From Candidatus Hydrogenedentota bacterium (GTDB lineage: Bacteria; Hydrogenedentota; Hydrogenedentia; Hydrogenedentales; SLHB01), in assembly GCA_029974275.1 (NCBI GenBank), contig JARKSN010000118.1, positions 1 to 13,790 of the forward strand: a DNA stretch of 13,790 nt, given 5' to 3'. Below, piece after piece: positions 1-13,790 of the stretch. The number at the start of each line of letters is the position of its first letter. Positions within the stretch are counted from its first letter, which is position 1. The position numbers and the translations under genes are program-made. The notes below the pieces were generated by a model, which was not told the origin of the DNA, made no database searches, and worked only from the letters and a program-made list of their open reading frames with translations.

Positions 1-10
1 TGTTACAAAA

Positions 11-86
11 CAACTACTATTTCATGTCAAAATAGTTGTTGACGAAGCGAAAAGCGACATGATAAACTAATTTTGCACGAAATAGT
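11..86. promoter_or_regulatory. Two palindromic operator-like sites (ACTAwTT-N7-AAATAGT) flanking the Fic promoter
   Basis: Site 1 at 16-36 is ACTATTT-CATGTCA-AAATAGT; its arms extend to 11-22 CAACTACTATTT and 30-41 AAATAGTTGTTG (11/12 inverted match). Site 2 at 66-86 is ACTAATT-TTGCACG-AAATAGT. The sites are exactly 50 bp apart. Confidence 0.6.
39..68 (+). promoter_or_regulatory. Putative sigma70-type promoter of the Fic gene
   Basis: TTGACG (39-44), 18-bp spacer, TAAACT (63-68) preceded by TG at 60-61 (extended -10, TGnTAAACT), in an AT-rich region upstream of ATG 133. Confidence 0.55.
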
Positions 87-132
87 ATATAACACAAAAA
101 ATACAACGCATTGAAAAACAATAGGTTGCGAC

Positions 133-1467
133 ATGAGAAAGCCAAAAACGCCGCCAAATCATGATCATTTTCTTCGCTTCATGACGGATAAGGATCGCAT
201 GCTAGCTGCCATTCGTGCGATCAATAGCCCCCTTGTAGATGGAAAGTATCTTCACTGGGATCAGCTTTTACGCTATTCGCCGCCGGCAGATTTGTCCCAT
301 GAAGATTGGTGGCACGGCCTCAAGTTCCAGCGTATGCCAACGTGCACGCGGCTGCCTTTGGCAAGTAAGTTAGGTGGGCACTTCTCGTACACGCTGGTGA
401 ATTTGATTCCCGAACATTTGCACTGGATTGATCTGCAAGCAGGTGGTTCGATCGAGATGCCCGGCGACATTGCAAATGAGAATTCACGGGATCGGTATAT
501 CTTCAATTCACTGCTCGAGGAAGCCATCACATCCAGTCAGATCGAGGGGGCAACCACAACACGTCAAGTTGCCAAAGACATGCTACGCACAGGGCGTCCA
601 CCACGTGACAGAAGCGAGCGCATGATCTTCAACAATTTCGTAACGATGCAACACATCAACGAAATCAAGAATCGTCCCCTGACCAAGGATATCGTGTTTG
701 AGCTACACCGGCTCGTCACGGAAGAGACACTCAACGATCCAGATGCGGCTGGTCGCTTCAGAAGAAACGGAGAAAACATCTATGTCGCGGGTGATAATGA
801 CGATATTCATCACGTTCCTCCGTCCGCCGACGAACTCAATGCTCGTATGGATGCCATGTGCGCGTTCGCAAACGGCGAAACCCCAGAAGAGTTCGTGCAC
901 CCCGCTATCCGCTCGATTGCGTTACATTTTTGGCTTGCCTACGATCACCCTTTTGTTGATGGCAATGGTCGCACAGCCCGCGCGTTGTTCTACTGGTCTA
1001 TGTTGCACCATGGGTATTGGCTGTTCGAGTTTCTGTCGATATCGCACATTATTCAAAAGGCGCCGAGCAAGTATAGCCGTGCCTTTTTATACACCGAAAC
1101 AGACGATAACGACTTGACATATTTCATCCTTTACCATTTGGACGTGATGAGGAAAGCAGTGGCTAGTCTCAATGACTACGTCAAGCGCAAGACAGAAGAA
1201 ATACAGGTTATCGAGAGACAATTGCGTGCAACAGCCACTGTCAATCATCGCCAGCTAGCTCTCATAAGCCATGCACTGCGCCATCGCGATCAAATCTACA
1301 CCATCGAATCGCACAGACGAAGCCATAACGTCGTGTATCAGACGGCACGGTTGGATTTGCTAGATCTGCTCGATTTAGGCATATTGACGGTGCGAAAATC
1401 CGGACGAACCATGCAGTTTCGCCCAGCGCCGGATATTGACGAGAGGCTTGCCGAGCTTACGTTGTGA
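133..1467 (+). CDS. Fic/DOC family protein (putative AMP transferase) with N-terminal inhibitory helix motif and probable C-terminal winged-helix domain
   Basis: 444-aa ORF with the canonical Fic motif HPFVDGNGRTAR (HxFx[D/E]GNGRxxR). SSQIEG matches the inhibitory (S/T)xxxE(G/N) motif and lies N-terminal to the core. The C-terminus NHRQLALI...YTIESHRRSHNVVYQTARLDLLDLLDLGIL...KSGR resembles a wHTH. Confidence 0.93.
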   Translation: MRKPKTPPNHDHFLRFMTDKDRMLAAIRAINSPLVDGKYLHWDQLLRYSPPADLSHEDWWHGLKFQRMPTCTRLPLASKLGGHFSYTLVNLIPEHLHWIDLQAGGSIEMPGDIANENSRDRYIFNSLLEEAITSSQIEGATTTRQVAKDMLRTGRPPRDRSERMIFNNFVTMQHINEIKNRPLTKDIVFELHRLVTEETLNDPDAAGRFRRNGENIYVAGDNDDIHHVPPSADELNARMDAMCAFANGETPEEFVHPAIRSIALHFWLAYDHPFVDGNGRTARALFYWSMLHHGYWLFEFLSISHIIQKAPSKYSRAFLYTETDDNDLTYFILYHLDVMRKAVASLNDYVKRKTEEIQVIERQLRATATVNHRQLALISHALRHRDQIYTIESHRRSHNVVYQTARLDLLDLLDLGILTVRKSGRTMQFRPAPDIDERLAELTL

Positions 1468-1560
1468 AGCAAACAATTCCTTTTTTTTGATGTTGCTTGC
1501 GGAGTCAGAGTAGGCTTACCGCAAAATCATTGCGTGGCGCCGTGAACTGGAGATTCGCCT

Positions 1561-2559
1561 GTGAACTACCCGGAACAACGATTGCGAAGGCTGCGGCGAA
1601 ATGAGACGTTGCGGCGGATGGTGCGGGAAACGACGGTGTCGGTCGATGACCTGATCATGCCGTTGTTTGTGCGGCCGGGCACGGGCGTGCGTAAGGCGAT
1701 TGCCTCGATGCCGGGGCAGGCGCAACTTTCGCCGGATGTGGCCGTCGAAGAGGCGTGCGAATTGGCCGAACTTGGCGTGCCGGCCGTGTTGCTGTTCGGC
1801 ATCCCGGAGCACAAGGACGCCGTGGGATCGCAGGCATATGCCGACGACGCGATCGTATGCGAGGCCGTGCGCGCGATCAAGAAGGCGCGCCCCGAACTCT
1901 GCATCATTACGGACGTGTGCCTGTGCGAATACACGGACCACGGGCATTGCGGGGCGGTGTACACAAACCGAGACGGAGTGCGGGACGTGGACAACGACGC
2001 GACGCTTGAGTTGCTTGTGCGCGAGGCGTTGGCGCACGCGCGGGCGGGCGCGGACATCGTCGCACCGTCGGATATGATGGACGGACGTGTCGGCGCGATT
2101 CGTCGCGCGCTCGATGAAGCGGCCCTGTCGGACGTGGCGATCATGGCGTACAGCGCCAAGTTTGCGTCGGCGTTCTATGGGCCGTTCCGCGACGCCGCGG
2201 AGTCGCCGCCGCAGTTCGGCGATCGGCGTTCGTATCAGATGGACCCCGCGAATGGCGTGGAAGGACTGCGCGAGATCGAGGCGGACATCGCGGAAGGCGC
2301 GGACCTTGTGATGGTGAAACCGGCGGTGCCGTACTTGGACGTCCTGGCGCGCGCGGCGGACTGCTTCGACGTGCCGATGGCGGCGTACCACGTGTCCGGC
2401 GAATACGCGATGCTGAAGGCCGCGGTCGCCAACGGCTGGATCGAGGAACGCCGCGCCGTGCTCGAAACCTTGACCGCGATTCGCCGCGCGGGCGCGAAAC
2501 TCATCATCACCTACTATGCGAAGGATGTTGTCCACTGGTTGGAGGAGCCCAGCGCATGA
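1561..2559 (+). CDS. hemB: Porphobilinogen synthase (delta-aminolevulinic acid dehydratase)
   Basis: RLRRLR N-terminus, Zn-binding DVCLCEYTDHGHCG, APSDMMDGRV, YSAKFASAFYGPFRDA, MVKPA (Schiff-base Lys) and AYHVSGEY. GTG start with GGAGA RBS at 1549-1553. Confidence 0.97.
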   Translation: MNYPEQRLRRLRRNETLRRMVRETTVSVDDLIMPLFVRPGTGVRKAIASMPGQAQLSPDVAVEEACELAELGVPAVLLFGIPEHKDAVGSQAYADDAIVCEAVRAIKKARPELCIITDVCLCEYTDHGHCGAVYTNRDGVRDVDNDATLELLVREALAHARAGADIVAPSDMMDGRVGAIRRALDEAALSDVAIMAYSAKFASAFYGPFRDAAESPPQFGDRRSYQMDPANGVEGLREIEADIAEGADLVMVKPAVPYLDVLARAADCFDVPMAAYHVSGEYAMLKAAVANGWIEERRAVLETLTAIRRAGAKLIITYYAKDVVHWLEEPSA

Positions 2560-3824
2560 ACGAAGCGTATGTTACGCTGGTCATCTTCGTGGCAGCCTAT
2601 GTGTTGTTTGTCGTGTTGCCGACGCGCCGTAGTCTTGTGGCCTGTGGCGGGGCATTGCTGTTGCTGTTTTCGGGCGTCATGTCGCCGTTGGAAGCCTTTT
2701 TGTCGATTAATTGGAACGTCATGGGCATATTTGTCGGCATGCTTGTCATGGCGGATGTGTTTATTGAAAGCCGATGCCCGGCCTATCTTGCGGAATGCAT
2801 CGTAAACCGAGCCCCCAGCACGGCGTGGGCATTATTGTTCATCTGCGCGTTGACCGGAGCCATCTCGATGTTTGTCGAGAACGTCGCAACGGTGCTTATC
2901 ATCGCGCCGATCGCGATCGAAATGACGAAGCGATTACAGATCAGCCCGGTTGCCACCATCATCGGCATCGCCATCAGCAGTAACTTGCAGGGCACGGCCA
3001 CGCTGATCGGCGATCCCCCCAGCATGTTGCTCGGCGGTTACGCCAAGATGACCTTCATGGATTTTTTCTTCTACCAGGGGAAACCCAGCATTTTCTTCGC
3101 AGTGGAACTCGGCGCACTAGCGTCGTTCGTCGTGCTGTACATGGTCTTTCGACGTCACGGGAAAAAGATGACGGTGATGGCGGTCGAGAAGGTCGAGTCG
3201 TGGACACCGGCAATCGCGTTGGTATTGTTGATTGCCGCGCTGGCCCTCTCATCGTTTTTCGATAAAGAGTTCAGCTACATGGCGGGGGGGCTGTGCATGC
3301 TGTTTGCCGCGGCAATGGTTATCTGGGCAGAGATCACGAAACGGGGCGCGTTCCTTGCCGGCATCAAGCGTCTGGACTGGGACACCACGTTCTTTCTACT
3401 GGGCATCTTCGTGATCGTTCACAGTTTGTCGGGGGCGGGATGGATTGACCGAATTTCCACGGAATTGTCGGACCTCATCGGCGGCAACATCTTTCTCGGG
3501 TATACGATGCTTGTTTTTCTGTCCGTCGCAGTGTCTGCGTTTGTCGACAACGTACCGTTTCTCGCGGCGATGCTGCCGGTCGCGCTCTCGTTGTCCGAGC
3601 GCCTCCACATTGACCCGACGCTGTTTCTCTTCGGATTGCTGATCGGCGCGAGTCTGGGCGGAAACGTGACCCCCATCGGGGCTTCCGCCAACATTGTCGG
3701 CATGGGATTGCTGCGCAAAGAAGGCCACCCCGTGACCTTTCGCCAGTGGGCCGCGATTTCGGTGCCCTTCACCATCGCGGCGGTGTTGCCTGCATACCTG
3801 CTGGTGTGGTTTATTTGGTCATAG
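2556..3824 (+). CDS. ArsB/NhaD/SLC13 (ion transporter superfamily) permease
   Basis: 422-aa polytopic membrane protein with two repeated IT-superfamily motif sets: SMFVENVAT...SNLQGTATLIGDPPS and SAFVDNVP...LGGNVTPIGASAN. The start overlaps the hemB stop (ATGA 2556-2559). Confidence 0.85.
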   Translation: MNEAYVTLVIFVAAYVLFVVLPTRRSLVACGGALLLLFSGVMSPLEAFLSINWNVMGIFVGMLVMADVFIESRCPAYLAECIVNRAPSTAWALLFICALTGAISMFVENVATVLIIAPIAIEMTKRLQISPVATIIGIAISSNLQGTATLIGDPPSMLLGGYAKMTFMDFFFYQGKPSIFFAVELGALASFVVLYMVFRRHGKKMTVMAVEKVESWTPAIALVLLIAALALSSFFDKEFSYMAGGLCMLFAAAMVIWAEITKRGAFLAGIKRLDWDTTFFLLGIFVIVHSLSGAGWIDRISTELSDLIGGNIFLGYTMLVFLSVAVSAFVDNVPFLAAMLPVALSLSERLHIDPTLFLFGLLIGASLGGNVTPIGASANIVGMGLLRKEGHPVTFRQWAAISVPFTIAAVLPAYLLVWFIWS

Positions 3825-3852
3825 CATAACGCGTAGAGGGGGAATCAAACGC

Positions 3853-5136
3853 ATGGAGCGTAAGCGGTCTTCGGAATTGTGGCAGGCGGCGAATCGCGTG
3901 CTGGCGGGCGGGGTCAACAGCCCCGTGCGCGCCTTCAAAGGCGTCGGCGGCGACCCCTTTTTCGCCGTCTCGGGCAAGGGCGCGTACGTGACCGACGCCG
4001 ACGGAAATGCACTGATCGACTACGTGCTTTCATGGGGACCGCTCATCCTCGGACACGCGCATCCGCATGTCGTCGAGGCCGTCATACGGGCGATGGAAAA
4101 GGGCTCCAGTTTCGGCATCCCGACGGAAAACGAGATCCGCCTCGCCGAGAAGATCATCGCGCACTATCCGTCGATGGAAAAGGTTCGGCTCGTCAACAGC
4201 GGCACCGAAGCCACGATGAGCGCGATTCGTCTCGCGCGCGGCTATACGGGGCGCGACCTGTTGATTAAGGTCGAGGGTTGTTACCACGGCCACGCGGACG
4301 CCCTGCTCGTCAAGGCGGGCAGCGGCTTGACGACGCTCGGCGTGCCGACGAGTCCCGGCGTGCCCGCGCCGTATGCGTCGTGCACGCTCACGATGCCGTT
4401 CAACGACCTCGCCGCGGCGCGCGCGCTTTTCCGCGAACACGGCGATCGCATCGCCGCGATTATTGTCGAACCAGTTGCAGGCAATATGGGGGTCGTGCCG
4501 CCTGCGGAGGGGTATCTGCAGGGGTTACGTCAACTAACACGCGAATCGGGCGCGCTGCTGATTTTCGACGAGGTGATGTGCGGGTTCCGCGTGGCGCTGG
4601 GCGGTGCGCAAGCGCGTTACGGCGTGACAGCGGACCTGACCGTGCTCGGCAAGGTCATTGGCGGCGGCCTGCCCGTCGGCGCGTACGGCGGTCCGGCAGC
4701 AATCATGGACCTTCTCTCGCCGACGGGTCCGGTGTACCAGGCGGGGACTCTCTCCGGCAACCCGCTCGCCACGGCGGCTGGCATCGCCACGCTGGAGGCG
4801 CTCGAACAACCCGGCGTGTTCGAGAGCATCGCGAAGAAAACCGGCGACCTGTGCGCGGGACTGTGGGCGTTGGCCCGCAGTGCAGGCGTGCCCGTGTTTC
4901 AGACGCATGTCGGCACGATGGCCTGCCTGTTTTTTTCGACCAATCCCGTGCGCAACTATGCCGACGCGCTCCAGGCCGATACGCAACGTTACGCGCGTTT
5001 CTTCTGGACCATGCTCGACAGCGGCATTTACCTTGCGCCGTCTCAGTTCGAGGCGATGTTCCTCAGCGCGGCCCACGGCGATGTCGAGATCGAAAAGACC
5101 TTGGATGCCGCACGGAAAGCCTTTGCTAGTTGTTAA
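3853..5136 (+). CDS. hemL: Glutamate-1-semialdehyde 2,1-aminomutase
   Basis: GGVNSPVRAF, DYVLSWGPLILGH, VNSGTEATMSAIRLARG, GCYHGH, FDEVMCGFR, PLP-binding GKVIGGGLPVG, YQAGTLSGNP and PSQFE. Purine-rich RBS GAGGGGG upstream. Confidence 0.97.
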   Translation: MERKRSSELWQAANRVLAGGVNSPVRAFKGVGGDPFFAVSGKGAYVTDADGNALIDYVLSWGPLILGHAHPHVVEAVIRAMEKGSSFGIPTENEIRLAEKIIAHYPSMEKVRLVNSGTEATMSAIRLARGYTGRDLLIKVEGCYHGHADALLVKAGSGLTTLGVPTSPGVPAPYASCTLTMPFNDLAAARALFREHGDRIAAIIVEPVAGNMGVVPPAEGYLQGLRQLTRESGALLIFDEVMCGFRVALGGAQARYGVTADLTVLGKVIGGGLPVGAYGGPAAIMDLLSPTGPVYQAGTLSGNPLATAAGIATLEALEQPGVFESIAKKTGDLCAGLWALARSAGVPVFQTHVGTMACLFFSTNPVRNYADALQADTQRYARFFWTMLDSGIYLAPSQFEAMFLSAAHGDVEIEKTLDAARKAFASC

Positions 5137-5178
5137 TCGGGGCGAGCGGAGCACCACAACGCCGCCGTGAGGAAAAGC

Positions 5179-5207
5179 TTGCCCTGTTTTGGCCGGCCTA
5201 TTATACT
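5179..5207 (+). promoter_or_regulatory. Putative sigma70 promoter of the PAP2-GT gene
   Basis: TTGCCC (5179-5184), 17-bp spacer, TATACT (5202-5207). ATG 5216 follows 8 nt after the -10 box. Confidence 0.6.
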
Positions 5208-5215
5208 TGCGCCCC

Positions 5216-7381
5216 ATGAATACCGAGTTATTCCGTTTTATCAACCAGACCATGAAAACGCCCTGGTTGGATCAGGTGATTCCTTTTTTTTCTGACAAGG
5301 ATTACGTGGTGATTCCCGGGGCGGTTGCGGCAGCGCTGGTGTTGTATTTTGGGCGGCGACATGCGCGGACCTGCCTGTTGGCGCTGGCGTTGGCGTTGCT
5401 GGTTGCGGATGTAGGGTCGGAGAAGGTCATCAAGAACGTTTTTTTGGAGCCGCGCCCCTACGCAACGCTTGAGAATGTTCATCTGCACCGCGGCAACGAC
5501 TGGCAGCTCTACGACCCCGCATGGTACAAACATGACAAACGCCAGAGCAACGGCTTTCCTTCCAGTCATGCCGCCAATGTCGCGGCTATCGCGACGGCGC
5601 TTGCGTTCCTCGATCGCCGCACGTTGTGCGCAACGGTTCCGCTTGCATTGTTGGTGGGTTTTTCGCGGGTGTATACCGGCAATCATTATCCCGTCGATGT
5701 GTTGGGCGGCTATGGATGGGGATTTCTTGCGGGAATTTCCATGATGTGGGTGAGCAGGAGGCTTGTGCGGCGTTGTTGCGGTTCGGAACAAGCCGTCGAG
5801 GGGGGCGGTTTCGCGCCGCCAGAGCGTCAAGCCTTCTACTGGTTGCTTGGGTTGTGGACGCTCGCGAACTTCCTGTTTGTTCACATGGGCGTGTACAGCT
5901 TGGCGGGAGATGAGGCGCAGTATTGGGACTGGTCGCGTCGTCTGGCGTTGGGCTATTACAGCAAGCCGCCGATGATCGCGTATGTCATCGACATTCTAAC
6001 AAGCGCAGGCGGCACCAAGGAGTGGGCCATTCGTTCCGGCTCGGTGATTCTTTCATCGACATCGCTTGCGCTCATCTATGCGCTGACGCTTCGCATAGCT
6101 CGCAGCGAAAAGGCCGCCTTGATGGCAGCAGGATCGGCAATGGCCATGCCGGCTGTTTGGGCGGGGTCGGTTCTGATGACCATCGATCCGCTCTTGGTGA
6201 CGTTCTGGACGCTGGCGATGTACACGTTTCATCGCGCGGTCCACGGCGATCGCGGCATGTGGGCGTTGACGGGGCTGGCGATGGGGTTGGGCATGTTGTC
6301 CAAGTATACGGCGGGGGTCTTGTACGTTGCGTTTTTGCTCTATCTATTGTTCGCCGATCGGAAGCGGCTGCGCACGCCAGGGCCGTATGTCGCGATGGCC
6401 ATTTCGCTCTTGTGCCTGTCAGGCGTGGCGTATTGGAACTGGGTGCACGATTGGGCGTCGTGGCGCCACACGGTTGGCATCGGCGCGGACGATTCCGGAC
6501 TGTCTCTGCGGTCCATGGAACGCCTCGGCGTTTATTTCGGCGCGCAGGCCGGCATCGTTTCGCCCGTTCTATTCGGGATGTATCTGTGGGCGATTTGGCA
6601 GTGTCTCGTGCGCGCGAAGGACGACCGTAACGCGTTGTACGTGACGCTTTGTTTTGGGGTTCTTTTCGCGTTTTATGCGCTGGTGTCTTTGACGCACAAG
6701 CCCGAGCCGAACTGGCCCGTTGCCGCATACCCCGCCGCCGCGATCGCGTTGGGCTGGGTTTGGACGCAGCGCGAACGGGGCCGGGCGGCTCGTTGGGCGT
6801 TTTTGGCGGCGGTGTTTTTGGGGTGCGCCGTAGGGGTGATGGCCCGGTCGCTGGACGCTGTGTATGCCTTCGCAAACAGCTCGAATGGGACGACGGATTC
6901 CTCGGACCGGCTGGAATTGTTCGGAATGCGCTTCGCCCCGCGTCAGGACCCGACGAACGAACTCAAGGGCGGGCCGGAGCTTGGGGCCGCTCTGGCCAAG
7001 CATATCGGCATTGGCGGAAAGGACGGAGCCCCGTTCCTTTTCAGCGATCGGTATCAAATGACCGCGCAGCTTGCGTTCTATGGGCCTGGCCGACCGCGTG
7101 CCTACTGCATGAATCTCGGCGATCGCCGGAGGAACCAATACGATCTTTGGGGCGGTTGGGACATGCTGGCGGGGCGTGACGGTCTTCTCGTCATGGGCGG
7201 AGACGAGATGAAGGCGCGGCTGTATATCGAGGGGTTGGTGCAGCGCGGAGCGTTTGACCGGGGCGAGTTTCTCGAGCGTGTTGATGTCTGGCGCGGGGCA
7301 GTGCGGATCAAGAGCTTCACGATCAGCCGTTTATACAACTACTCGGGCCGTGAATGGACGACGGGACGCGAACGATACTGA
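5216..7381 (+). CDS. Fusion protein: N-terminal PAP2 lipid phosphatase + ArnT/Rgt-like GT-C (PMT_2-type) membrane glycosyltransferase
   Basis: All three PAP2 motifs are present: KNVFLEPRP (Kx6RP), FPSSH and SRVYTGNHYPVD. The GT-C signature DEAQYWDWSRRLALGYYSKPPMIA follows, then TIDP, GMLSKYT, many TM segments and a soluble C-terminal domain. ATG 5216 (721 aa) is preferred over TTG 5189, which lies inside the promoter. Confidence 0.85.
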   Translation: MNTELFRFINQTMKTPWLDQVIPFFSDKDYVVIPGAVAAALVLYFGRRHARTCLLALALALLVADVGSEKVIKNVFLEPRPYATLENVHLHRGNDWQLYDPAWYKHDKRQSNGFPSSHAANVAAIATALAFLDRRTLCATVPLALLVGFSRVYTGNHYPVDVLGGYGWGFLAGISMMWVSRRLVRRCCGSEQAVEGGGFAPPERQAFYWLLGLWTLANFLFVHMGVYSLAGDEAQYWDWSRRLALGYYSKPPMIAYVIDILTSAGGTKEWAIRSGSVILSSTSLALIYALTLRIARSEKAALMAAGSAMAMPAVWAGSVLMTIDPLLVTFWTLAMYTFHRAVHGDRGMWALTGLAMGLGMLSKYTAGVLYVAFLLYLLFADRKRLRTPGPYVAMAISLLCLSGVAYWNWVHDWASWRHTVGIGADDSGLSLRSMERLGVYFGAQAGIVSPVLFGMYLWAIWQCLVRAKDDRNALYVTLCFGVLFAFYALVSLTHKPEPNWPVAAYPAAAIALGWVWTQRERGRAARWAFLAAVFLGCAVGVMARSLDAVYAFANSSNGTTDSSDRLELFGMRFAPRQDPTNELKGGPELGAALAKHIGIGGKDGAPFLFSDRYQMTAQLAFYGPGRPRAYCMNLGDRRRNQYDLWGGWDMLAGRDGLLVMGGDEMKARLYIEGLVQRGAFDRGEFLERVDVWRGAVRIKSFTISRLYNYSGREWTTGRERY

Positions 7382-7418
7382 TTGCGGGGACACGAAAACC
7401 GAAGAAAAAGGGCTGGCT

Positions 7419-7775
7419 ATGCACGCGGGAAATGCTTCGACGATTGCTCTGTTGATTGGTTCGAACGTGTTCATGACGTATGCCTGGTATGGCCATTTGA
7501 AGGACCTCAAGGGCAAGCCGCTGTTGATTGTCATCGTCGCGAGTTGGGCGGTGGCGTTTCTCGAATATTGTCTGCAGGTGCCGGCCAACCGCATCGGGTA
7601 TCACTTCTTTTCGCTCGGGCAGCTCAAAGTGCTGCAAGAGATCATCACGATGTGCGTGTTCGCGGTATTCGCGTTGGTGTATATGAAAGAGCAGCTCAAG
7701 TGGGACTATTTATGGGCGGGGTTGTGTCTTGCCGGCGCGGCGTATTTCATGTTCCGCAACGTTTCGCCCGTGTGA
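7419..7775 (+). CDS. DMT superfamily small membrane protein (DUF486-like)
   Basis: 118 aa from ATG 7419 with four hydrophobic segments and the motifs SNVFMTYAWYGHLK, SWAVAFLEYCLQVPANRIG and QLKVLQEIIT. The ORF-track extension to 7254 overlaps the upstream CDS. Confidence 0.85.
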   Translation: MHAGNASTIALLIGSNVFMTYAWYGHLKDLKGKPLLIVIVASWAVAFLEYCLQVPANRIGYHFFSLGQLKVLQEIITMCVFAVFALVYMKEQLKWDYLWAGLCLAGAAYFMFRNVSPV

Positions 7776-7782
7776 GTTCGCG

Positions 7783-10089
7783 CTACTGCTGTGCATCGGC
7801 GCCGAGAACGTAATTGTCGAAGGGGCCGGTCGAAAAGCCGAGGATGTCGCGGAAATTCGGCAGTGCGGGGGTTGTCGTGGCGATGCGCCACGCGCCGTCT
7901 TCGGCGGTGAAGGTGAACCAGACTTCTCCAGCAGGGGTGCGAGGAAAGTGCGCTTCCAGATCGCCGACGCGCCCCGCCGGATCCGACACAGCCACGCCCG
8001 AAAGCCGGCAATACAGCAACACTTTCACGGCGCCGCCGGCTTCGTAGGCGCTGAAATCCCAATGCCGGATCTGCCGCGCCATGTTGGGGGCGCTGTAGCG
8101 ATCGAAAAACCACTGGTACGCGCGACGCACGTATTGGTGTCGCCATCCATCGATGTCTTCGTAATCCGAGGCGTATAGATTGGCAATGCTTTCAAGGTCT
8201 TTGCGCGCAAAGGCATCCCCGAACTCTTCGAGCCGCTTTACGATTGCGTTGGCGATGGGCATGTGTGTTTCGGGAACGCCGTCAAAGGTTGGCCACCAGG
8301 GCTTGTCATTTACAGGCATTGTCGACGATGGGGCTACGGGAGCCCCTTTTCCGTAGGAAAGCGCGGGGGTGATCACCGCTTCTTCCGCGATGCGGCTTTC
8401 CACGGCGCTAAGCGCAAGACAGTCGCCGTAATTCACCGTTCCTTCGTAAATTTCTTTCGAGTCGGTCAAGGCGGTGACGGCATAGACAAGGCTTGCCGTC
8501 GGGTCCGCGTCGGCATCGGTCCAGGTTGGCGCGTCGAGGTCCTTCCCCGTCAAGGAGAACATGGTTTCCGGCAAGACGCGCCGGTACACCCGGTACGCAA
8601 CGTCGCCTTCACGGAAAGGCCATGTCAGCACGACGCCCGCCGCGTCGCGTTTCGCCTCAAGTCCACGCACCGGAGCGGGCATATCGGCAACGCTGAAGGG
8701 TTGCGCCTCGTAAATATTTTCGCGGGTATTCAGGATGAAAACAGCGCGCCCGACTCGCGTGATGAAGGCCGTCCCGGTTCCGTCGGGCAGATACTGCTGA
8801 TCGAGCAGGCGGGTCCAATCCTGGGAGGTGGAAAACTGGCCGGTCTTGACGACCTGGGCGTAGCCGTTCCATGCTTCGGGCGGCGCGAAGGCCGATAGAA
8901 CGGGCGTCCAATAGTGGCGTCCGTTGTTCGGAATTAATTCGGGAACCTGACCGGGGCGCTCCATGCCATACGCGCCGTGCAGGAGCAGGCCTTGGTCGAA
9001 GACCCCGTCGACATCGCGCAGAATGGCATGAAACTCCTGCGGGGTCTTGGCAGAGGTCATCTGGTAGGCCACGCGAACTTTTTTTTGCACGAAGTCCTTG
9101 CGCGCAATGAGCCCTCCGTCAACCAATTGCATCAGGGCGGGGTAGATGGCCTGGTCCCAATAGCGTTTGCGGTCGCCAAACCACAGGTCTCCGCCCGGAC
9201 TGAAGACATACACGGACGCGCCGGTCATGGCTCCGTTGCATATCATCGCACGATACAACGCCGGCGGCATTGCATTCGGATCGGAGGCGGGACCGAAGAC
9301 CCCCGGCTGTTGGAAATTTGCGTCCTGATACCACTGCGTCAACGGCGCGACGCCCCACTGCGCCACGGCGTCTTCGAGCCACAAGCCCATCAACGCCGAG
9401 GTCCCGGCGATCGTCTGCTGACCGCGATAGAGCAGCGCCGGAATCACATAGCCCCGGCATTCGCGCAGCTTATCGTATAAGGGACGATATGCCGGATTCG
9501 ATGTCATGCGAACCCAATCAAGAGGCGCGGCCTGCACGCACAGAAAGCGCCCATAGCGCGCACAAAGCTCCGATGCGGCCATCACCCAGCGCGCCGTGGG
9601 CGGGAGGGCGAATTCAACGCCGCCGCCGAACGTGACGTATTCGTTGAACGAGAGGCCGTTCGCCTGGAGTCCTTTCACGCAACCAAACTCGGCCAACAGC
9701 GCCTCGATAAGTTCCATGGGGTATATGCGCGCCGGGTCGGCATCGGCGACGCGCGCGACGACGGGGATGTTGGCCTGTTGCAAGACGGCAAGCGCCGTGC
9801 GGTAGCGTTCATGCCGTGCGGCGGGGTCGGGCCCCCACACGTCGATTTGCAGCGTCGCGAACGGACGAAGCCGCAGCGGCATCTGTCCCCAGACCTGCGT
9901 CACCGCCTGGGCGTATGCGGCGGGATCGGCTGTTTCGACGCCCGTGACTTGAAAAAGAAACAGCGGATGGTCTGCGTTGATCTCCGTCGCCAATGGGGGA
10001 AACGGAGCCGCAGGGGCCTCTCCGGCAACCGCCCACGCAACAGCGATCACGATGCTTATCGACAAGGTGCGATTCATGGTTTTGTCCAT
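7783..10089 (-). CDS. Secreted multidomain protein: GH98-like domain + FN3-like domain + C-terminal NTF2/SnoaL-like domain
   Basis: Signal peptide MNRTLSISIVIAVAWAVAGEAPA. Co-linear GH98-like motifs: INADHPLF, LRPFATLQ, IPVVARV, MGLWLEDAVAQWG, WYQD, TGASVYVF, NGRH and LDQQYLPDGTGTAF. FN3-like: PVRGLEAKR..VVLTW..YRVYRR..WTD..YAVTA. NTF2-like: FGDAFARKDLESIANLYASDY...FTAEDGAWRI. Start is uncertain (10101, 10089 or 10077); the CDS is more certain than the product call. Confidence 0.7.
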   Translation of the reverse strand: MDKTMNRTLSISIVIAVAWAVAGEAPAAPFPPLATEINADHPLFLFQVTGVETADPAAYAQAVTQVWGQMPLRLRPFATLQIDVWGPDPAARHERYRTALAVLQQANIPVVARVADADPARIYPMELIEALLAEFGCVKGLQANGLSFNEYVTFGGGVEFALPPTARWVMAASELCARYGRFLCVQAAPLDWVRMTSNPAYRPLYDKLRECRGYVIPALLYRGQQTIAGTSALMGLWLEDAVAQWGVAPLTQWYQDANFQQPGVFGPASDPNAMPPALYRAMICNGAMTGASVYVFSPGGDLWFGDRKRYWDQAIYPALMQLVDGGLIARKDFVQKKVRVAYQMTSAKTPQEFHAILRDVDGVFDQGLLLHGAYGMERPGQVPELIPNNGRHYWTPVLSAFAPPEAWNGYAQVVKTGQFSTSQDWTRLLDQQYLPDGTGTAFITRVGRAVFILNTRENIYEAQPFSVADMPAPVRGLEAKRDAAGVVLTWPFREGDVAYRVYRRVLPETMFSLTGKDLDAPTWTDADADPTASLVYAVTALTDSKEIYEGTVNYGDCLALSAVESRIAEEAVITPALSYGKGAPVAPSSTMPVNDKPWWPTFDGVPETHMPIANAIVKRLEEFGDAFARKDLESIANLYASDYEDIDGWRHQYVRRAYQWFFDRYSAPNMARQIRHWDFSAYEAGGAVKVLLYCRLSGVAVSDPAGRVGDLEAHFPRTPAGEVWFTFTAEDGAWRIATTTPALPNFRDILGFSTGPFDNYVLGADAQQ

Positions 10090-10110
10090 AGCGCCGCGCA
10101 TGCGGGCTCG

Positions 10111-10139
10111 ATTGTACCGTCCTGCAAAGACTTGTACAA
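10111..10139 (-). promoter_or_regulatory. Putative sigma70 promoter of the GH98-like gene
   Basis: On the minus strand: TTGTAC (10139-10134), 17-bp spacer, TACAAT (10116-10111). In-frame ATGs follow at 10101, 10089 and 10077. Confidence 0.6.
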
Positions 10140-10237
10140 GGAATGCCCACCATCCACTTTTTTCAGGGGAGTGGGCGGACCTTGGAAACAACGACTCGCA
10201 GCGTTGGCGTCTCCTTGAAGTTAATGCTTGGGATCGC

Positions 10238-10265
10238 AAAAAAGTGCCCGTGAATGAACAAGGCA
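10238..10265 (-). terminator. Possible intrinsic terminator after the sulfatase-like gene
   Basis: On the minus strand, just after the stop: TGCCT(T)GT-TCATTC-ACGGGCA stem-loop (one bulge, one G-U pair) followed by CTTTTTT. Confidence 0.4.
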
Positions 10266-10278
10266 GGGACGAGGGCTT

Positions 10279-12231
10279 TCACCACTGATATCCCAATGCG
10301 CGCATCTGCTCTTCCCGTTGCTTGCGCTCCTGGGGGGATTCCTCCCGAGAGGCGTCTGAGGCGATGGGTGTAAAGAGGAGTTGTCCGATAAAGGCGGCGT
10401 GCGTTTTGGCGGCTTCCTCGAAGACGACGTGAAATGCGCCGTTGAGAACCGTGTAGGTTCCAATCTCGACCTGGCGGAACTCGCCCGGGGCGTCATCGCA
10501 CACGATGCGTTGGGGGTGCGCGTCTTGCTGCGCCTGCACGAAAAACGCCGATGCGCGCATGGGAGCAGGCCCTGAGAACGCCATGCACTCGACGAACACG
10601 CGGTACGTGCCGTTGGGGATTTCCAGACGGACCCTTAGGGGAGGGAGAGGATCGCTCAAGTCTGGGATGCCCAGAACGGCGCCGCCGAACCAAATCCATG
10701 CCGGCGGAAGGAAGGGTTCGAGCGCCGGATCAACGGCGGCGCGAATGGCTCCAGGACGCAGCAAAAAAGGCCCTTCGCTCACATAGGGGTTGTGCGGGTC
10801 CAATCGCACGTGGAACGTGGCGCTCGTATATTGCGTCAGAAGGGCGTCGTATGCGTTCCACTTGGGCATGATGTCCGCCATCATCAGCGACCGCAAGCGG
10901 TCGGTGGCGGCCGCGTCATGGACTGGGTGGAGGGAAGCCAGCGCGAAAGGGGCATCGAAAAGCGTCTCGACGCCGGTGCGCGTGTCGTAGAAATAGGCGT
11001 TTTGGAAAGTCCGCAGCACGAACGTTGGATGCCCGGCTTGCCATCCGGGGCTTCTCGCAAATACGAAGGAGCGATTGGGAAGCGCCTCCATGGCTGGGTT
11101 TGAAAATAACGGGCGCACATCCTGTCCGTCGAATTGGGCCGTGGTGGACAGGCCGATCATGGCGATCAATGTTGGCGCGATGTCGACGTTCTCCGTGAGG
11201 GCGCGTATGCGGACGCCTTGGGGGATTCCAGGCCCGGCCATGATAAAAGGCGTGTGCATGACCTCTTCGCACATGATGCCATGTCCAATTGAATGTCCAT
11301 CTTCGGCCAGGGCCTCTCCGTGATCGGAGGTCACGATAACAATAGTGTTTTCTTCGAGGCCGTTTTGGCTCAGATAGTCGAGCAACTCGCCGATCTGAGC
11401 ATCGGACTCGCAAATGGCCCCGTCGTAAAGTCCTTGAAAATAGGCCCTATCTTCCTGGGTGAACCCCTGGGGAGGCGCCGGAGTGACGCCCGGCATGAAT
11501 GTCCGGGCGATGCCGCGGTAGGACCTGTCCAGCCACTTGTCGTAAGGAGGAGCCGGAGCAAGCGGGAAATGGGTGTCCATGGCGTGCATGTACAAGAAAA
11601 AGGGGCGATCCTTGTTTTTCTCGAGAAGCGCGATGGCCGCTTCGTTGAGGCGCTTGAATCGTGCAGGGAAATAGGCATGAGCCGTTGCGTCTGATTTCAC
11701 CTCCACTGCGTCGTGAAACGCGCGCCACAAACGACTGCGCGGCCCGAGAAAGAAATGTGCGGTCGCGAGGAGGGTCCGGTAGCCATTCTGGGAAAAAATC
11801 GTGGGCAGCAACGCCTCTTCAGGAGGCGACTCAAACGACGGATCAGGCATGTCTCGATCACTTGCCAGATAGTGGAGGGCGAAGTAGCGTCCTGTGAAGT
11901 AAGAAGGGAGCGATACGAACGTGGCGAATCCCTGGGCGTAATTGGCCTCGAAAAGGACGCCGCGCGCCGCCAGGCGATCGAGATGGGGCGAGGTGGGGCG
12001 GTGATAGCCGTAACACGAAAGATTCTGCGCACGGCACGCATCCAGAACGATCCAGACGACATTGGGCTTGCTGGGGGCCGCCTCGTTCAGCGGGGTTGAC
12101 AGGGAAGAAACCTCCGCAGGAATGGAGGCCGTCTTGTCTCGCGGATTGCCGCATCGGTTGCAGACCAAGGCGCACAGGATGGCCCCTAGAGCGACAACCG
12201 CCCCCCGGCGCACTATCGGCATTTTCGTCAT
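10279..12231 (-). CDS. Exported sulfatase-like hydrolase/transferase (alkaline phosphatase superfamily) with extra C-terminal beta-rich domain
   Basis: N-terminal signal or lipoprotein-like leader. Motifs KPNVVWIVLDACRA, YGYHRPTSPHLDRLAARGVLF, TFVSLPSYFTGRY, PFFLYMHAMDTH, YDGAI..D, IVIVTSDHGE and VDIAPTL. C-terminal QMRALGY. Confidence 0.88.
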   Translation of the reverse strand: MTKMPIVRRGAVVALGAILCALVCNRCGNPRDKTASIPAEVSSLSTPLNEAAPSKPNVVWIVLDACRAQNLSCYGYHRPTSPHLDRLAARGVLFEANYAQGFATFVSLPSYFTGRYFALHYLASDRDMPDPSFESPPEEALLPTIFSQNGYRTLLATAHFFLGPRSRLWRAFHDAVEVKSDATAHAYFPARFKRLNEAAIALLEKNKDRPFFLYMHAMDTHFPLAPAPPYDKWLDRSYRGIARTFMPGVTPAPPQGFTQEDRAYFQGLYDGAICESDAQIGELLDYLSQNGLEENTIVIVTSDHGEALAEDGHSIGHGIMCEEVMHTPFIMAGPGIPQGVRIRALTENVDIAPTLIAMIGLSTTAQFDGQDVRPLFSNPAMEALPNRSFVFARSPGWQAGHPTFVLRTFQNAYFYDTRTGVETLFDAPFALASLHPVHDAAATDRLRSLMMADIMPKWNAYDALLTQYTSATFHVRLDPHNPYVSEGPFLLRPGAIRAAVDPALEPFLPPAWIWFGGAVLGIPDLSDPLPPLRVRLEIPNGTYRVFVECMAFSGPAPMRASAFFVQAQQDAHPQRIVCDDAPGEFRQVEIGTYTVLNGAFHVVFEEAAKTHAAFIGQLLFTPIASDASREESPQERKQREEQMRALGYQW

Positions 12232-12339
12232 GATGGTTGTTCTCGTTCTATGACCATGGCGGTTGGCCGATGGAGTATCCGCTCCCGCATTTCTCGGATA
12301 TGCCCGAATCCGTTGTGATTGCTCTGGCGCGTTTCCGCG

Positions 12340-13790
12340 TCAGTGCGCCTTGCCCGCTCTGTGTTCCTCCGCCAACGCGGCGATGTAGTCGGGGTCGAGT
12401 TTGGGAAAGAGAACTTCGGGCGTGTTGAGGGGCGCGCCGGCAGACAATAGGGCCTTGGCGGCAGTCCAGATGTCGTCGCCGCCGTCGGGGCCGTTATTGG
12501 GCAACGCGATGTTGAGAATTCCCGCGAGTTTCTCTGCGCCGGCGGGCAGGAATGGCGCCATGGCCGTGCAAAGCGTCCTCACCACCTGGCAGCACACGTA
12601 CAGCGTCGTCGCGGTGCGAACGAGATCCGTCTTACGCGTGGTCCACGGGGCCTTCGCATCGAAGTATTGGTTCGCCTTGCGGCCAATCTCGATGAAACGT
12701 TCGAGCGAGAGACGGAATCGGAATTCCTCCAACGCCTCGGCAACGCCATCCAACTGCACGGGCAACGAATCGAGCAACGCCTGATCGTCCGCATCCAGCG
12801 CGCCGGGTTCGGGCACTTTGCCGTCGAAATTCTTCACGGTCATCGTGAGCGAGCGGTGCACGAAGTTGCCGACGACGTCGCACAACTCGCCGTTGTATCG
12901 GTTGCGGAACTCGTCCCAGTCGAAGGCGGCATCGCGCGATTCGGGCATGATCGCCGCCAAATAGTAGCGCGCGGCGTCCTGCGAGAACCGTTCGAGGAAC
13001 CAGCGCACGCTGATCATGTTGCCCTTCGACTTAGAACCCTTCTCCGCCACACCCGTCTCGCGGTTAACGACGTTGAGGTACTCGTTGCCAACAACCTGGT
13101 CGGGCAGGATGTAGCCGTCTTGGCCCATGAGCATCGCCGGGAAAATCACCGCATGGAACGGAACGTTGTCCTTGCCGATGAAGTGAATGAGGCGCGTCGC
13201 GTTATCTTTCCACCACGGCTGCCACGCATCATCGCCAAGGCCTTTGTCGATGCCCCACTGCCGCGTGTTCGTGACGTAACCAATGGGCGCGTCGAACCAG
13301 ACGTAGATGCGCTTGCCCTGCGCGATCGGGTCGTCGATGGGAATCGGCACGCCCCAGTCCGTGTCGCGCGTGATGCAGCGCGCATGCAATTCGCTCACCC
13401 AGCCCCCCGCGATGCCCTTGACGTTCGCGCGCCATTCCGGGTGTCCGTCAAGCCACGCGCGCAGACGGTCCGTGAAGTCTTGCAGACGCAGGAACCAATG
13501 CGCGGACTTGCGCAACGCCGGCGTCGAGCTGTCACCGGGGATGTTCGCGCGCGGGTCGATAAGCTCGTGCGCGGCGTATTGCGCGCCACAATTCTCGCAC
13601 TCGTCGCCGTTCGCGTCGGCATAGCCGCACTTCGGGCACGTGCCCTTCACGTAACGGTCGGGCAGGAAACGGTCCGACGCCTCCGAGTGCCAGAGTTCCA
13701 TCTCCTGTTGGTCGATATGGCCGCCTTGGCCAAGAGCCTGGAAGAACGCCTGCGTCGTGTCGACGTGCAGCGGCCACGAGGTGCGTCCGT
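12340..13790 (-). CDS. metG: Methionine--tRNA ligase (5' end outside the window)
   Basis: The frame stays open to the window edge (GRTSWPLHVDTTQAFF...). Motifs FLPDRYVKGTCPKC..GDECENCG (Zn knuckle), CITRDTDWGVPIP, YVWFDAPIGY, HFIGKDNVPFH, KMSKS-equivalent KGSKS, GNFVHR and NQYFDAKAPW. Confidence 0.96.
   Translation of the reverse strand, partial: GRTSWPLHVDTTQAFFQALGQGGHIDQQEMELWHSEASDRFLPDRYVKGTCPKCGYADANGDECENCGAQYAAHELIDPRANIPGDSSTPALRKSAHWFLRLQDFTDRLRAWLDGHPEWRANVKGIAGGWVSELHARCITRDTDWGVPIPIDDPIAQGKRIYVWFDAPIGYVTNTRQWGIDKGLGDDAWQPWWKDNATRLIHFIGKDNVPFHAVIFPAMLMGQDGYILPDQVVGNEYLNVVNRETGVAEKGSKSKGNMISVRWFLERFSQDAARYYLAAIMPESRDAAFDWDEFRNRYNGELCDVVGNFVHRSLTMTVKNFDGKVPEPGALDADDQALLDSLPVQLDGVAEALEEFRFRLSLERFIEIGRKANQYFDAKAPWTTRKTDLVRTATTLYVCCQVVRTLCTAMAPFLPAGAEKLAGILNIALPNNGPDGGDDIWTAAKALLSAGAPLNTPEVLFPKLDPDYIAALAEEHRAGKAH

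Follow-up and report, generated by a model that had tools for sequence, protein, structure and literature searches.

A stretch of 13,790 nucleotides from a Candidatus Hydrogenedentota bacterium (assembly GCA_029974275.1, contig JARKSN010000118.1, positions 1 to 13,790; hereafter the window) encodes on its minus strand a protein of 772 residues that is related to glycoside hydrolase family 98 (GH98) and in which each of the residues that mark the GH98 active site is replaced. As judged from profile comparisons, the first ~475 residues are homologous to the catalytic (GH98M) and C-terminal (GH98C) domains of the family. Alignments and trees show the loss of the canonical catalytic set to be derived and to extend throughout the clade to which the protein belongs, here called clade A. 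We favour the reading, at a probability of about one half, that the clade A protein is a glycan-binding pseudo-glycosidase. It combines the features of a pseudoenzyme, namely homology to an enzyme family, loss of the catalytic residues and maintenance of the gene by selection, and is thus a candidate pseudoenzyme.

The relationship to GH98 is visible with the single protein and much clearer with profiles. The Pfam catalytic-domain family PF08306 scored 20.3 bits against the whole protein and 21.8 bits against the translation of 8701-9990, just under the cut-off of 23, and phmmer matched the protein to the Sp4GH98 structures 2wmf, 2wmg and 2wmh with an E-value of 2.3e-5. A profile made from an alignment of 46 orthologues (A1) matched 2wmf at 2.7e-22 and the Sp3GH98 entries at ~2e-7. 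When this profile was aligned by hhalign to that of 18 bona fide GH98 proteins (A4) the probability was 100%, with an E-value of 7.3e-49 over 467 columns that take in both the barrel and the GH98C domain. Individually, 28 of the 46 orthologues matched PF08306 at E <= 1e-3, and all 17 of the A4 proteins that were scanned (17 of 18) passed its cut-off, 16 of them also matching PF08307. For the GH98C domain the evidence comes from the hhalign alignment, which runs through residues 336-475 of the window protein and beyond; by direct HMMER comparison the signal is weak, consisting of a second stretch aligned to 2wmf (independent E-value 0.93), and PF08307 is among the precomputed matches of a minority of the orthologues. 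Both domains are therefore recognised through profile and profile-profile comparison, and the likeness to GH98 that a first-pass annotation of the DNA had proposed from the order of motifs, with a HMMER search as the check, is upheld, even with PF08306 alone remaining below threshold. The range given there, 8700..9990, is limited to the barrel and the greater part of the GH98C-like domain; the gene as a whole is larger (Table 1). In the database, 183 proteins match the window protein at E <= 0.001. Apart from the protein itself, 119 are listed at 44-56% identity; among the matches listed nearly all are ~720-810 residues long and the named sources are mostly Candidatus Hydrogenedentes or Hydrogenedentota.

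The columns that hold the catalytic residues were fixed from invariance in the data. In the 18 GH98 proteins Glu158, Lys220 and Glu301 (numbering of P0219) are invariant (18/18), and column 251 is always acidic, with 11 Glu and seven Asp. In Sp4GH98 we take Glu158 to be the acid and Asp251 and Glu301 to be the bases, and the acid Glu is replaced by Ala in 2wmg relative to 2wmf. The general acid of RgGH98 is Glu411, the equivalent of the canonical acid Glu, according to PMC8730463, and Glu361 and Asp467 are named as key catalytic residues of BoGH98 in PMC4491172. A wider set of GH98M proteins was obtained by searching 1.84 billion cluster representatives (the best 150 of 378 matches at E <= 1e-3). 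Among these listed matches the acid column is Glu in 57 of 73 other GH98M representatives, that is those outside the clades described below, and nine of the ten gapped rows have a Glu four columns on, being short-loop forms; each of the two base columns is Asp or Glu in 62 of the 73. In the window protein none of the four residues is present. MAFFT, hmmalign and hhalign concur in pairing Gly149 with Glu158, Leu224 with Lys220, Leu254 with Asp251 and Ser301 with Glu301. Since all four defining residues were tested for and all are absent, the protein is best described as a homologue of GH98 and not as a functional member. The first-pass annotation had named three codons, for Gly149, Leu254 and Ser301, as the sites of the missing carboxylates; all three are as it described, as is that of Glu154, and the alignments to the 18 GH98 proteins agree that the three carboxylates are lost, with the invariant Lys gone as well.

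It might be asked whether the apparent loss is an artefact of alignment in an ordinary, active GH98 enzyme that uses Glu154 or a nearby carboxylate as its acid. The pairwise phmmer alignment set the acid opposite Asn153, one residue from Glu154, and Asp or Glu is found at 154 in 94 of 120 orthologues. This shift arises because clade A and its paralogues in the phylum (group B, below) carry a four-residue insertion after strand 4. In the multi-sequence alignments the motif of K-G, four residues and Glu takes the form KGVMNIE in canonical GH98; the paralogue has RSICIAE there and the window protein KGLQANG, and the ungapped register of the first-pass annotation is therefore correct. Columns 149 and 153 must also be different positions, because the group B proteins have Glu149 without exception (21/21) and many have Glu153 besides. 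The three multi-sequence methods are independent in agreeing on Gly149, Leu254 and Ser301, both base positions and Lys220 are lost in addition to the acid, and a tree of the orthologues requires at least 12 gains or losses of acidity at 153/154, with 22 of the 120 having no acid at either position. The idea of Glu154 as a shifted acid, which had been raised as a caveat, thus finds little support in its conservation, and an ordinary GH98 enzyme is disfavoured by the alignments to the point of being very improbable.

Residues were counted in the 120 aligned orthologues, and changes of acidic state were counted on a tree of the same sequences that was built without the columns in question. Position 149 is Gly in 69, Asp in 26, Asn in nine, Glu in five and Ser in five. 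Position 224 is never Lys (0/120). Position 254 is Asp in 42, Thr in 28, Ser in 20, Gln in 12, Arg in eight, Asn in five, His in four and Leu in one, and position 301 is Ala in 31, Pro in 28, Asp in 16, Glu in 15, Ser in 11 and Gly in nine, with others making up the rest. No orthologue has all three canonical carboxylates, 18 have two, and 34, the window protein included, have none; Asp254 is never combined with Asp or Glu at 301 (0/120), a pattern for which an independent-pairs test was powerless. Acidity was gained or lost at least 17 times at 149, at least nine times at 254 and at least 13 times at 301. At position 243 it changed only twice, the residue being Glu in 109 and Asp in nine (118/120 acidic). 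Position 198 is Arg in 109 and His in 11, Asp305 is present in 113, Trp172 in 120 and Arg185 in 119, and an aromatic framework of Tyr155, Trp241, Trp249, Trp257, Tyr283, Tyr298, Trp307 and Trp315 is conserved. The first-pass annotation had suggested looking for shared substitutions under purifying selection: the selection is there (below), whereas the particular substitutions are not shared and the former catalytic positions are free to vary.

The direction of the change was read from trees of the barrel, in which the eight columns in question were omitted and which were rooted on canonical GH98. In a FastTree tree of 122 rows and an IQ-TREE (LG+C20) tree of 54 rows clade A had a support of 100 (35 and 21 rows respectively). 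It lies within a larger clade (support 98 and 95) that otherwise consists of group B, arranged as a grade around clade A. The acid column holds Glu in 0 of 35 clade A and 13 of 14 group B sequences, and column 301 holds Asp or Glu in 11 of 35 and 14 of 14, to be set beside the proportions of 57/73 and 62/73 in other GH98M representatives; Glu243 has the opposite distribution, in 30 of 35, one of 14 and 0 of 73. Phe50, Leu107, Trp172, Arg185, Arg198 and Glu243 are conserved in clade A only. From these counts, the acid was lost and Glu243 acquired on the branch leading to clade A, and since clade A is nested among Hydrogenedentota paralogues that keep the Glu residues, the loss is derived.

The paralogues were followed further in the genomes of the phylum. 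Thirty-two second copies were taken from other genomes, 30 of which gave a barrel match, and 21 are of the group B type, defined by Tyr172. These have Glu149 (21/21), Glu252 (20/21), Gln254 (21/21), Glu301 (21/21) and Asp305 (21/21), and none has an acid at 243. The group B paralogues resemble the window protein in having the same four-domain architecture with an NTF2-like end, at 31-37% identity, in sharing Tyr283-Arg284 and Asp305, and in forming one clade with clade A (support 95-98); they differ from it in keeping Glu149, Glu252 and Glu301, with Gln254, and in having Ala, Gly or Ser at 243 and Tyr in place of Trp at 172. P0152, a basal group B representative, holds both the canonical residues and Glu243. 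Within clade A a divergent sub-clade has Asp149 and Glu301, with Thr, Ser or Leu at 243, in all six of its loci (L085, L087, L088, L092, L097 and L100, from genomes G056, G051, G049, G052, G055 and G054); the gene is the only copy in these small genomes (~3-3.5 Mb) of one family. This sub-clade may be a transitional form linking group B with core clade A.

The source genome itself (G000; 4.38 Mb in 342 contigs) encodes a single group B paralogue; this protein, from contig C246, is 33% identical to the window protein. It passes the Pfam GH98M cut-off (29.9 and 43.8 bits), and its Glu residues align with those of 2wmf. It has the four-domain plan, both canonical Glu residues and an insertion of ~45-60 residues in the Fn3-like region, adjoins a Mur-ligase-like gene and a gene for a RACo-type protein, and, should translation begin at the internal Met that precedes 'ATQKK', would show no obvious signal peptide. 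A division into cytoplasmic group B and exported clade A proteins was considered and dropped, as most group B representatives have a signal peptide. In one other genome two group B copies stand in tandem on one contig (G118:C17:31474-36226).

The fixation of Glu243 raises the possibility, which we regard as tentative, that the clade A barrel is a rewired enzyme that would cleave glycans by means of Glu243, which lies where strand 6 ends, with assistance from Arg/His198 and from Asp305 or an acid at 153/154. It might do so through a one-carboxylate mechanism, either substrate-assisted or transglycosylase-like, or through a new acid/base pair. Glu243 is a novelty of clade A, nearly always acidic there and Glu in none of the 73 other GH98M representatives; it is fixed together with Arg/His198 (120/120), Asp305 is almost as constant, and the aromatics of the pocket are kept. 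The sub-clade with Asp149 and Glu301 lacks Glu243 in all six members, as would be expected if one set of residues replaces the other, and P0152 has both sets. Some so-called pseudoenzymes are reported simply to have migrated catalytic residues (PMC10211241). On the other hand, clade A has no second carboxylate that is both invariant and specific to it: group B, which retains the canonical Glu pair, conserves Asp305 to the same degree, and the loop acid at 153/154 is missing from 22 of the 120 orthologues. If the barrel were rewired, clade A would represent a near-universal exported enzyme of the Hydrogenedentota and a glycan-processing family that derives from GH98 but works by a new mechanism, with the Asp149/Glu301 sub-clade and group B as living intermediates of the hand-over. 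The lack of catabolic neighbours (below) would then suggest a housekeeping function, exerted on glycans of the cell's own envelope or matrix.

In the pseudo-glycosidase reading, clade A would go back to a GH98-like gene with a complete catalytic set that was duplicated within the Hydrogenedentota. As the alignments and trees show, the general-acid Glu was replaced on its stem, mostly by Gly, and constraint was lifted from the invariant Lys and from both positions of the water-activating carboxylates; the barrel framework and its aromatics stayed, and a new polar pair, Glu243 with Arg/His198, became fixed. The barrel would no longer hydrolyse by the inverting mechanism of GH98 and would most likely serve as a glycan-binding module outside the cytoplasmic membrane, in which Glu243 and Arg198 would hold hydroxyls or a charged group of the ligand. 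The Fn3-like domain might act as a spacer and the NTF2-like domain in self-association or in binding a second ligand. Blood-group or Lewis antigens are unlikely as ligands, because the phylum is one of wastewater and sediment. The sensor and scaffold roles that had been suggested in the first-pass annotation are not favoured in particular, nothing in the analysis speaking for either.

Several observations weigh against a pure binder. At least one canonical carboxylate is kept in 86 of the 120 orthologues and an acid at 153/154 in 98, and with these remaining acids some lineages may retain weak activity. Where Glu243, Arg198 and Asp305 lie in the pocket is predicted from strand positions. Classic lectin-like pseudo-glycosidases usually just lose the acid, and a new carboxylate at the end of a barrel strand resembles a relocated catalytic residue. 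The sub-clade with Asp149 and Glu301 and without Glu243 fits a step-wise catalytic hand-over as well as a loss. Constraint on the barrel matches that on the other domains, which fits a binder and a rewired enzyme alike.

Comparison with characterised proteins was made for the GH98 endo-beta-1,4-galactosidases Sp4GH98 (2WMF/2WMG/2WMH), Sp3GH98 (2WMI/4D6x), RgGH98 and the C. perfringens E-ABase. The window protein resembles them in its homologous barrel and GH98C domain, in being putatively secreted, and in the order of its motifs (xHPL, LKPY, IPV, KG, GLWL..WG, VYxF, GRxY). It differs in that the equivalents of Glu158, Lys220, Asp/Glu251 and Glu301 are replaced and unconserved, in the four-residue insertion following strand 4, and in having Glu243 where they have Ser. 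It has none of their CBM47, CBM51 or F5/8C modules, Fn3-like and NTF2-like domains being found instead, and its host belongs to an environmental phylum whereas theirs are mucosal bacteria. BoGH98 (BACOVA_03433) is a GH98 member with a specificity other than that of a galactosidase, an endo-xylanase of complex glucuronoarabinoxylan (PMC4491172), so that the substrate range of GH98 is wider than the blood-group antigens. BoGH98 depends on Glu361 and Asp467, of which the window protein has no equivalents, and is encoded in a polysaccharide utilisation locus, whereas the window gene has no conserved carbohydrate-related neighbourhood.

Among pseudo-glycosidases, the GH18 chitinase-like lectins are glycan binders. 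These lectins, heparanase-2 and beta-amylase 9 share with the window protein the retention of a glycosidase fold from which the catalytic residues have gone; they are eukaryotic proteins of other families, whereas the window protein, a putative pseudo-glycosidase, is of a bacterial GH98 lineage with a newly fixed carboxylate. Known pseudo-glycosidases are reported to act by binding glycans or partner proteins (PMC12406646, PMC11326238). Among the papers listed in a search of the openly available literature, none reported a GH98 clade of this kind. By automatic annotation the clade A proteins are 'glycoside hydrolase family 98 domain-containing', and they would be counted as GH98 in censuses of carbohydrate-active enzymes in wastewater and sediment communities, though probably unable to work as such. 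With group B, the Asp149/Glu301 sub-clade and core clade A with Gly149 and Glu243, a single phylum would offer three stages in the loss or relocation of an active site, a series that makes the distinction between a pseudoenzyme and migrated catalytic residues directly testable. The clade A protein also belongs to the small number of exported proteins that are widely conserved in the uncultured Hydrogenedentota and restricted to the phylum, and would provide a handle on the surface or matrix glycobiology of these bacteria.

The gene is maintained under purifying selection. Ratios of non-synonymous to synonymous substitution rates (dN/dS; Nei-Gojobori) were calculated for 13 non-overlapping close pairs and were finite for 12; for the barrel they lay between 0.052 and 0.241 in 11 clade A pairs and at 0.053 in one group B pair, with similar values for the other domains. 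A strain variant in one metagenome has 27 listed differences in the gene, of which 22 are synonymous and five non-synonymous. A match, whether orthologue or paralogue, was found at E <= 1e-10 in 107 of 135 genomes of the phylum, in 75 of 86 high-quality genomes and in 48 of 66 genera; by a hand count ~85-90 genomes have a match at >= 40% identity. Together the selection and the wide occurrence in the phylum agree with the earlier proposal of a maintained homologue without the canonical machinery. A decaying gene or an assembly artefact would be a conceivable explanation for lost catalytic residues, and one orthologue (L083, G092:C10:570800-574300) is indeed spread over nine tblastn pieces in alternating frames. 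In the window, however, the 772-codon frame is intact, as is the gene in 70 or more loci, the dN/dS values are low, and the same sequence occurs in contigs of several independent metagenome runs. With the dN/dS values, the metagenome contigs and the strain variant this explanation is refuted for the window gene. The split copy in G092, a 20-contig assembly, is either a real pseudogene or the product of long-read indel errors.

Nearly all of the 76 public loci come from metagenome-assembled genomes of Hydrogenedentota. For a number of them the record title is Nitrospiraceae or Nitrospirales, for single loci it is Bathyarchaeia or Rhodothermaeota, and one protein, named 'glycoside hydrolase family 98 domain-containing protein' (WP_394707875.1), is titled Roseovarius pacificus; such off-phylum titles are probably mislabelled or contaminated bins and not cases of gene transfer. 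Sequence of the organism is present in wastewater, activated-sludge and digester metagenomes, five runs holding at least half of the sampled words. One RNA library contained a single identical contig of 255 bases (8183-8437), the rest of the gene being uncovered and carry-over of DNA being possible, which is a weak hint that the gene is transcribed.

The minus-strand frame is open over 7783..10239, and its product from the ATG at 10099-10101 is identical to the database protein P0002, so that the intact, signal-peptide-bearing reading frame of the first-pass annotation stands, the signal peptide by eye. Further in-frame ATGs are codons 5 and 9 (10087-10089 and 10075-10077). The N-terminus, MRGAMDKTMNRTLSISIVIAVAWAVAG, resembles a Sec signal peptide on such a reading, with a basic stretch followed by LSISIVIAVAWAVAG, and a crude test found a hydrophobic 12-mer ahead of the barrel in 99 of the 120 orthologues. 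The best explanation of the whole is an exported protein in four parts, with GH98-type barrel, GH98C-type, Fn3-like and NTF2-like domains as predicted from the matches in Table 1. The Fn3-like chains 3mpc (E 1.6e-5) and 5g56 were matched at positions 477-547 of the orthologue profile. At the C-terminus, SnoaL_2 was matched with an E-value of 0.0022 and 19 bits, under the cut-off of 27, the Atlas feature score for a SnoaL/NTF2-like domain was 0.94, and the best Protein Data Bank match was 3h51 (E 0.03), an oligomerising domain of the CaMKII-association type. A search of the window protein against NCBIfam matched no family.

The conservation of this last domain suggests a further, unlikely reading, in which it would be the working part, a small-molecule enzyme or binder, and the degenerate barrel would target or scaffold it. 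Among the GH98M proteins scanned the NTF2/SnoaL-like end was found only in clade A and group B, where all 43 sequences compared have Tyr647, Asp649, Tyr657, Gln677 and Trp681, a pattern that would suit a small-molecule pocket, and its dN/dS of 0.05-0.21 is similar to that of the other domains. Enzymes with Tyr/Asp pockets are common among NTF2-like proteins. The family assignment is at the level of a lead, however, and the barrel is equally conserved and has acquired fixed residues of its own.

Table 1. Positions of the gene, its putative domains, the residues discussed and the neighbouring genes in the window; the last row refers to another contig of the same genome.
Feature	Coordinates	Strand	Basis or remark
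Whole gene, 772 codons, stop 7783-7785	7783..10101	-	Open reading frame; database protein P0002
Signal-peptide-like segment, residues 1-27	10021..10101	-	By eye
GH98M-like (beta/alpha)8 barrel, ~residues 30-335	9097..10014	-	Pfam, phmmer, orthologue profile, hhalign
GH98C-like domain, ~residues 336-475, borders approximate	8677..9096	-	hhalign
Fn3-like domain, ~residues 476-560, borders approximate	8422..8676	-	Orthologue profile
SnoaL/NTF2-like C-terminal domain, residues 598-760	7822..8310	-	Lead-level matches
Gly149, at GH98 general-acid Glu158 position	9655..9657	-	hmmalign, hhalign
Glu154, possible shifted acid of the first-pass annotation, not conserved	9640..9642	-	Alignments
Arg198, clade-typical basic residue	9508..9510	-	Alignments
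Leu224, at invariant GH98 Lys220 position	9430..9432	-	hhalign
Glu243, clade-specific carboxylate in GLWLE; canonical GH98 has WLS	9373..9375	-	Alignments
Leu254, at GH98 Asp/Glu251 position	9340..9342	-	phmmer, orthologue profile, hmmalign, hhalign
Ser301, at GH98 Glu301 position	9199..9201	-	phmmer, orthologue profile, hmmalign, hhalign
Fic/DOC-family gene, 444 residues	133-1467	+	
hemB	1561-2559	+	
CitMHS-family transporter	2556-3824	+	Overlaps hemB stop by 4 bases
Class-III aminotransferase, hemL-like	3853-5136	+	
PAP2-PMT_2 (ArnT-like glycosyltransferase) fusion, 730 residues	5189-7381	+	Convergent with the GH98-like gene
Sulfatase	10279-12231	-	Directly upstream, 177 bases away
Methionyl-tRNA synthetase (MetRS), cut by contig end	12340-13701	-	
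Group B paralogue of the source genome	L002:562-3177 = L082:3195-5810	-	Contig C246

No conserved operon or partner was found across the 73-76 loci searched. The families that surround the gene in the window recur near it in only three of 76 loci, never in the same order, and the PAP2-PMT_2 fusion next to it is not conserved in other genomes. The sulfatase could be co-transcribed with the GH98-like gene here; sulfatase-like genes lie within 8 kb of it in two of the 76 other loci. The commonest neighbour families are a BD-FAE esterase and an EamA transporter, in 11 and 10 of 73 loci, and a PKD protein, penicillin amidase, RtcB and DUF1015 were also seen. Clade A genes stand among unrelated housekeeping genes, whereas several group B copies adjoin genes for a GntP permease, a polysaccharide deacetylase, DUF2961, GHL6, an FGGY kinase or a 3-keto-disaccharide hydrolase, a contrast that we regard as soft. 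Scans of the window with Rfam and for tRNA genes gave no matches, and a scan for promoters and terminators gave one promoter-like site, at 10138-10111 on the minus strand, no more than in shuffled sequence. Elsewhere in the window, the CitMHS gene between hemB and the hemL-like aminotransferase is an unusual insert between genes of haem synthesis. The first 1500 bases of the window (1-1500), which hold the Fic/DOC gene, have a G+C content of ~0.49 as against ~0.60 elsewhere and may be foreign DNA.

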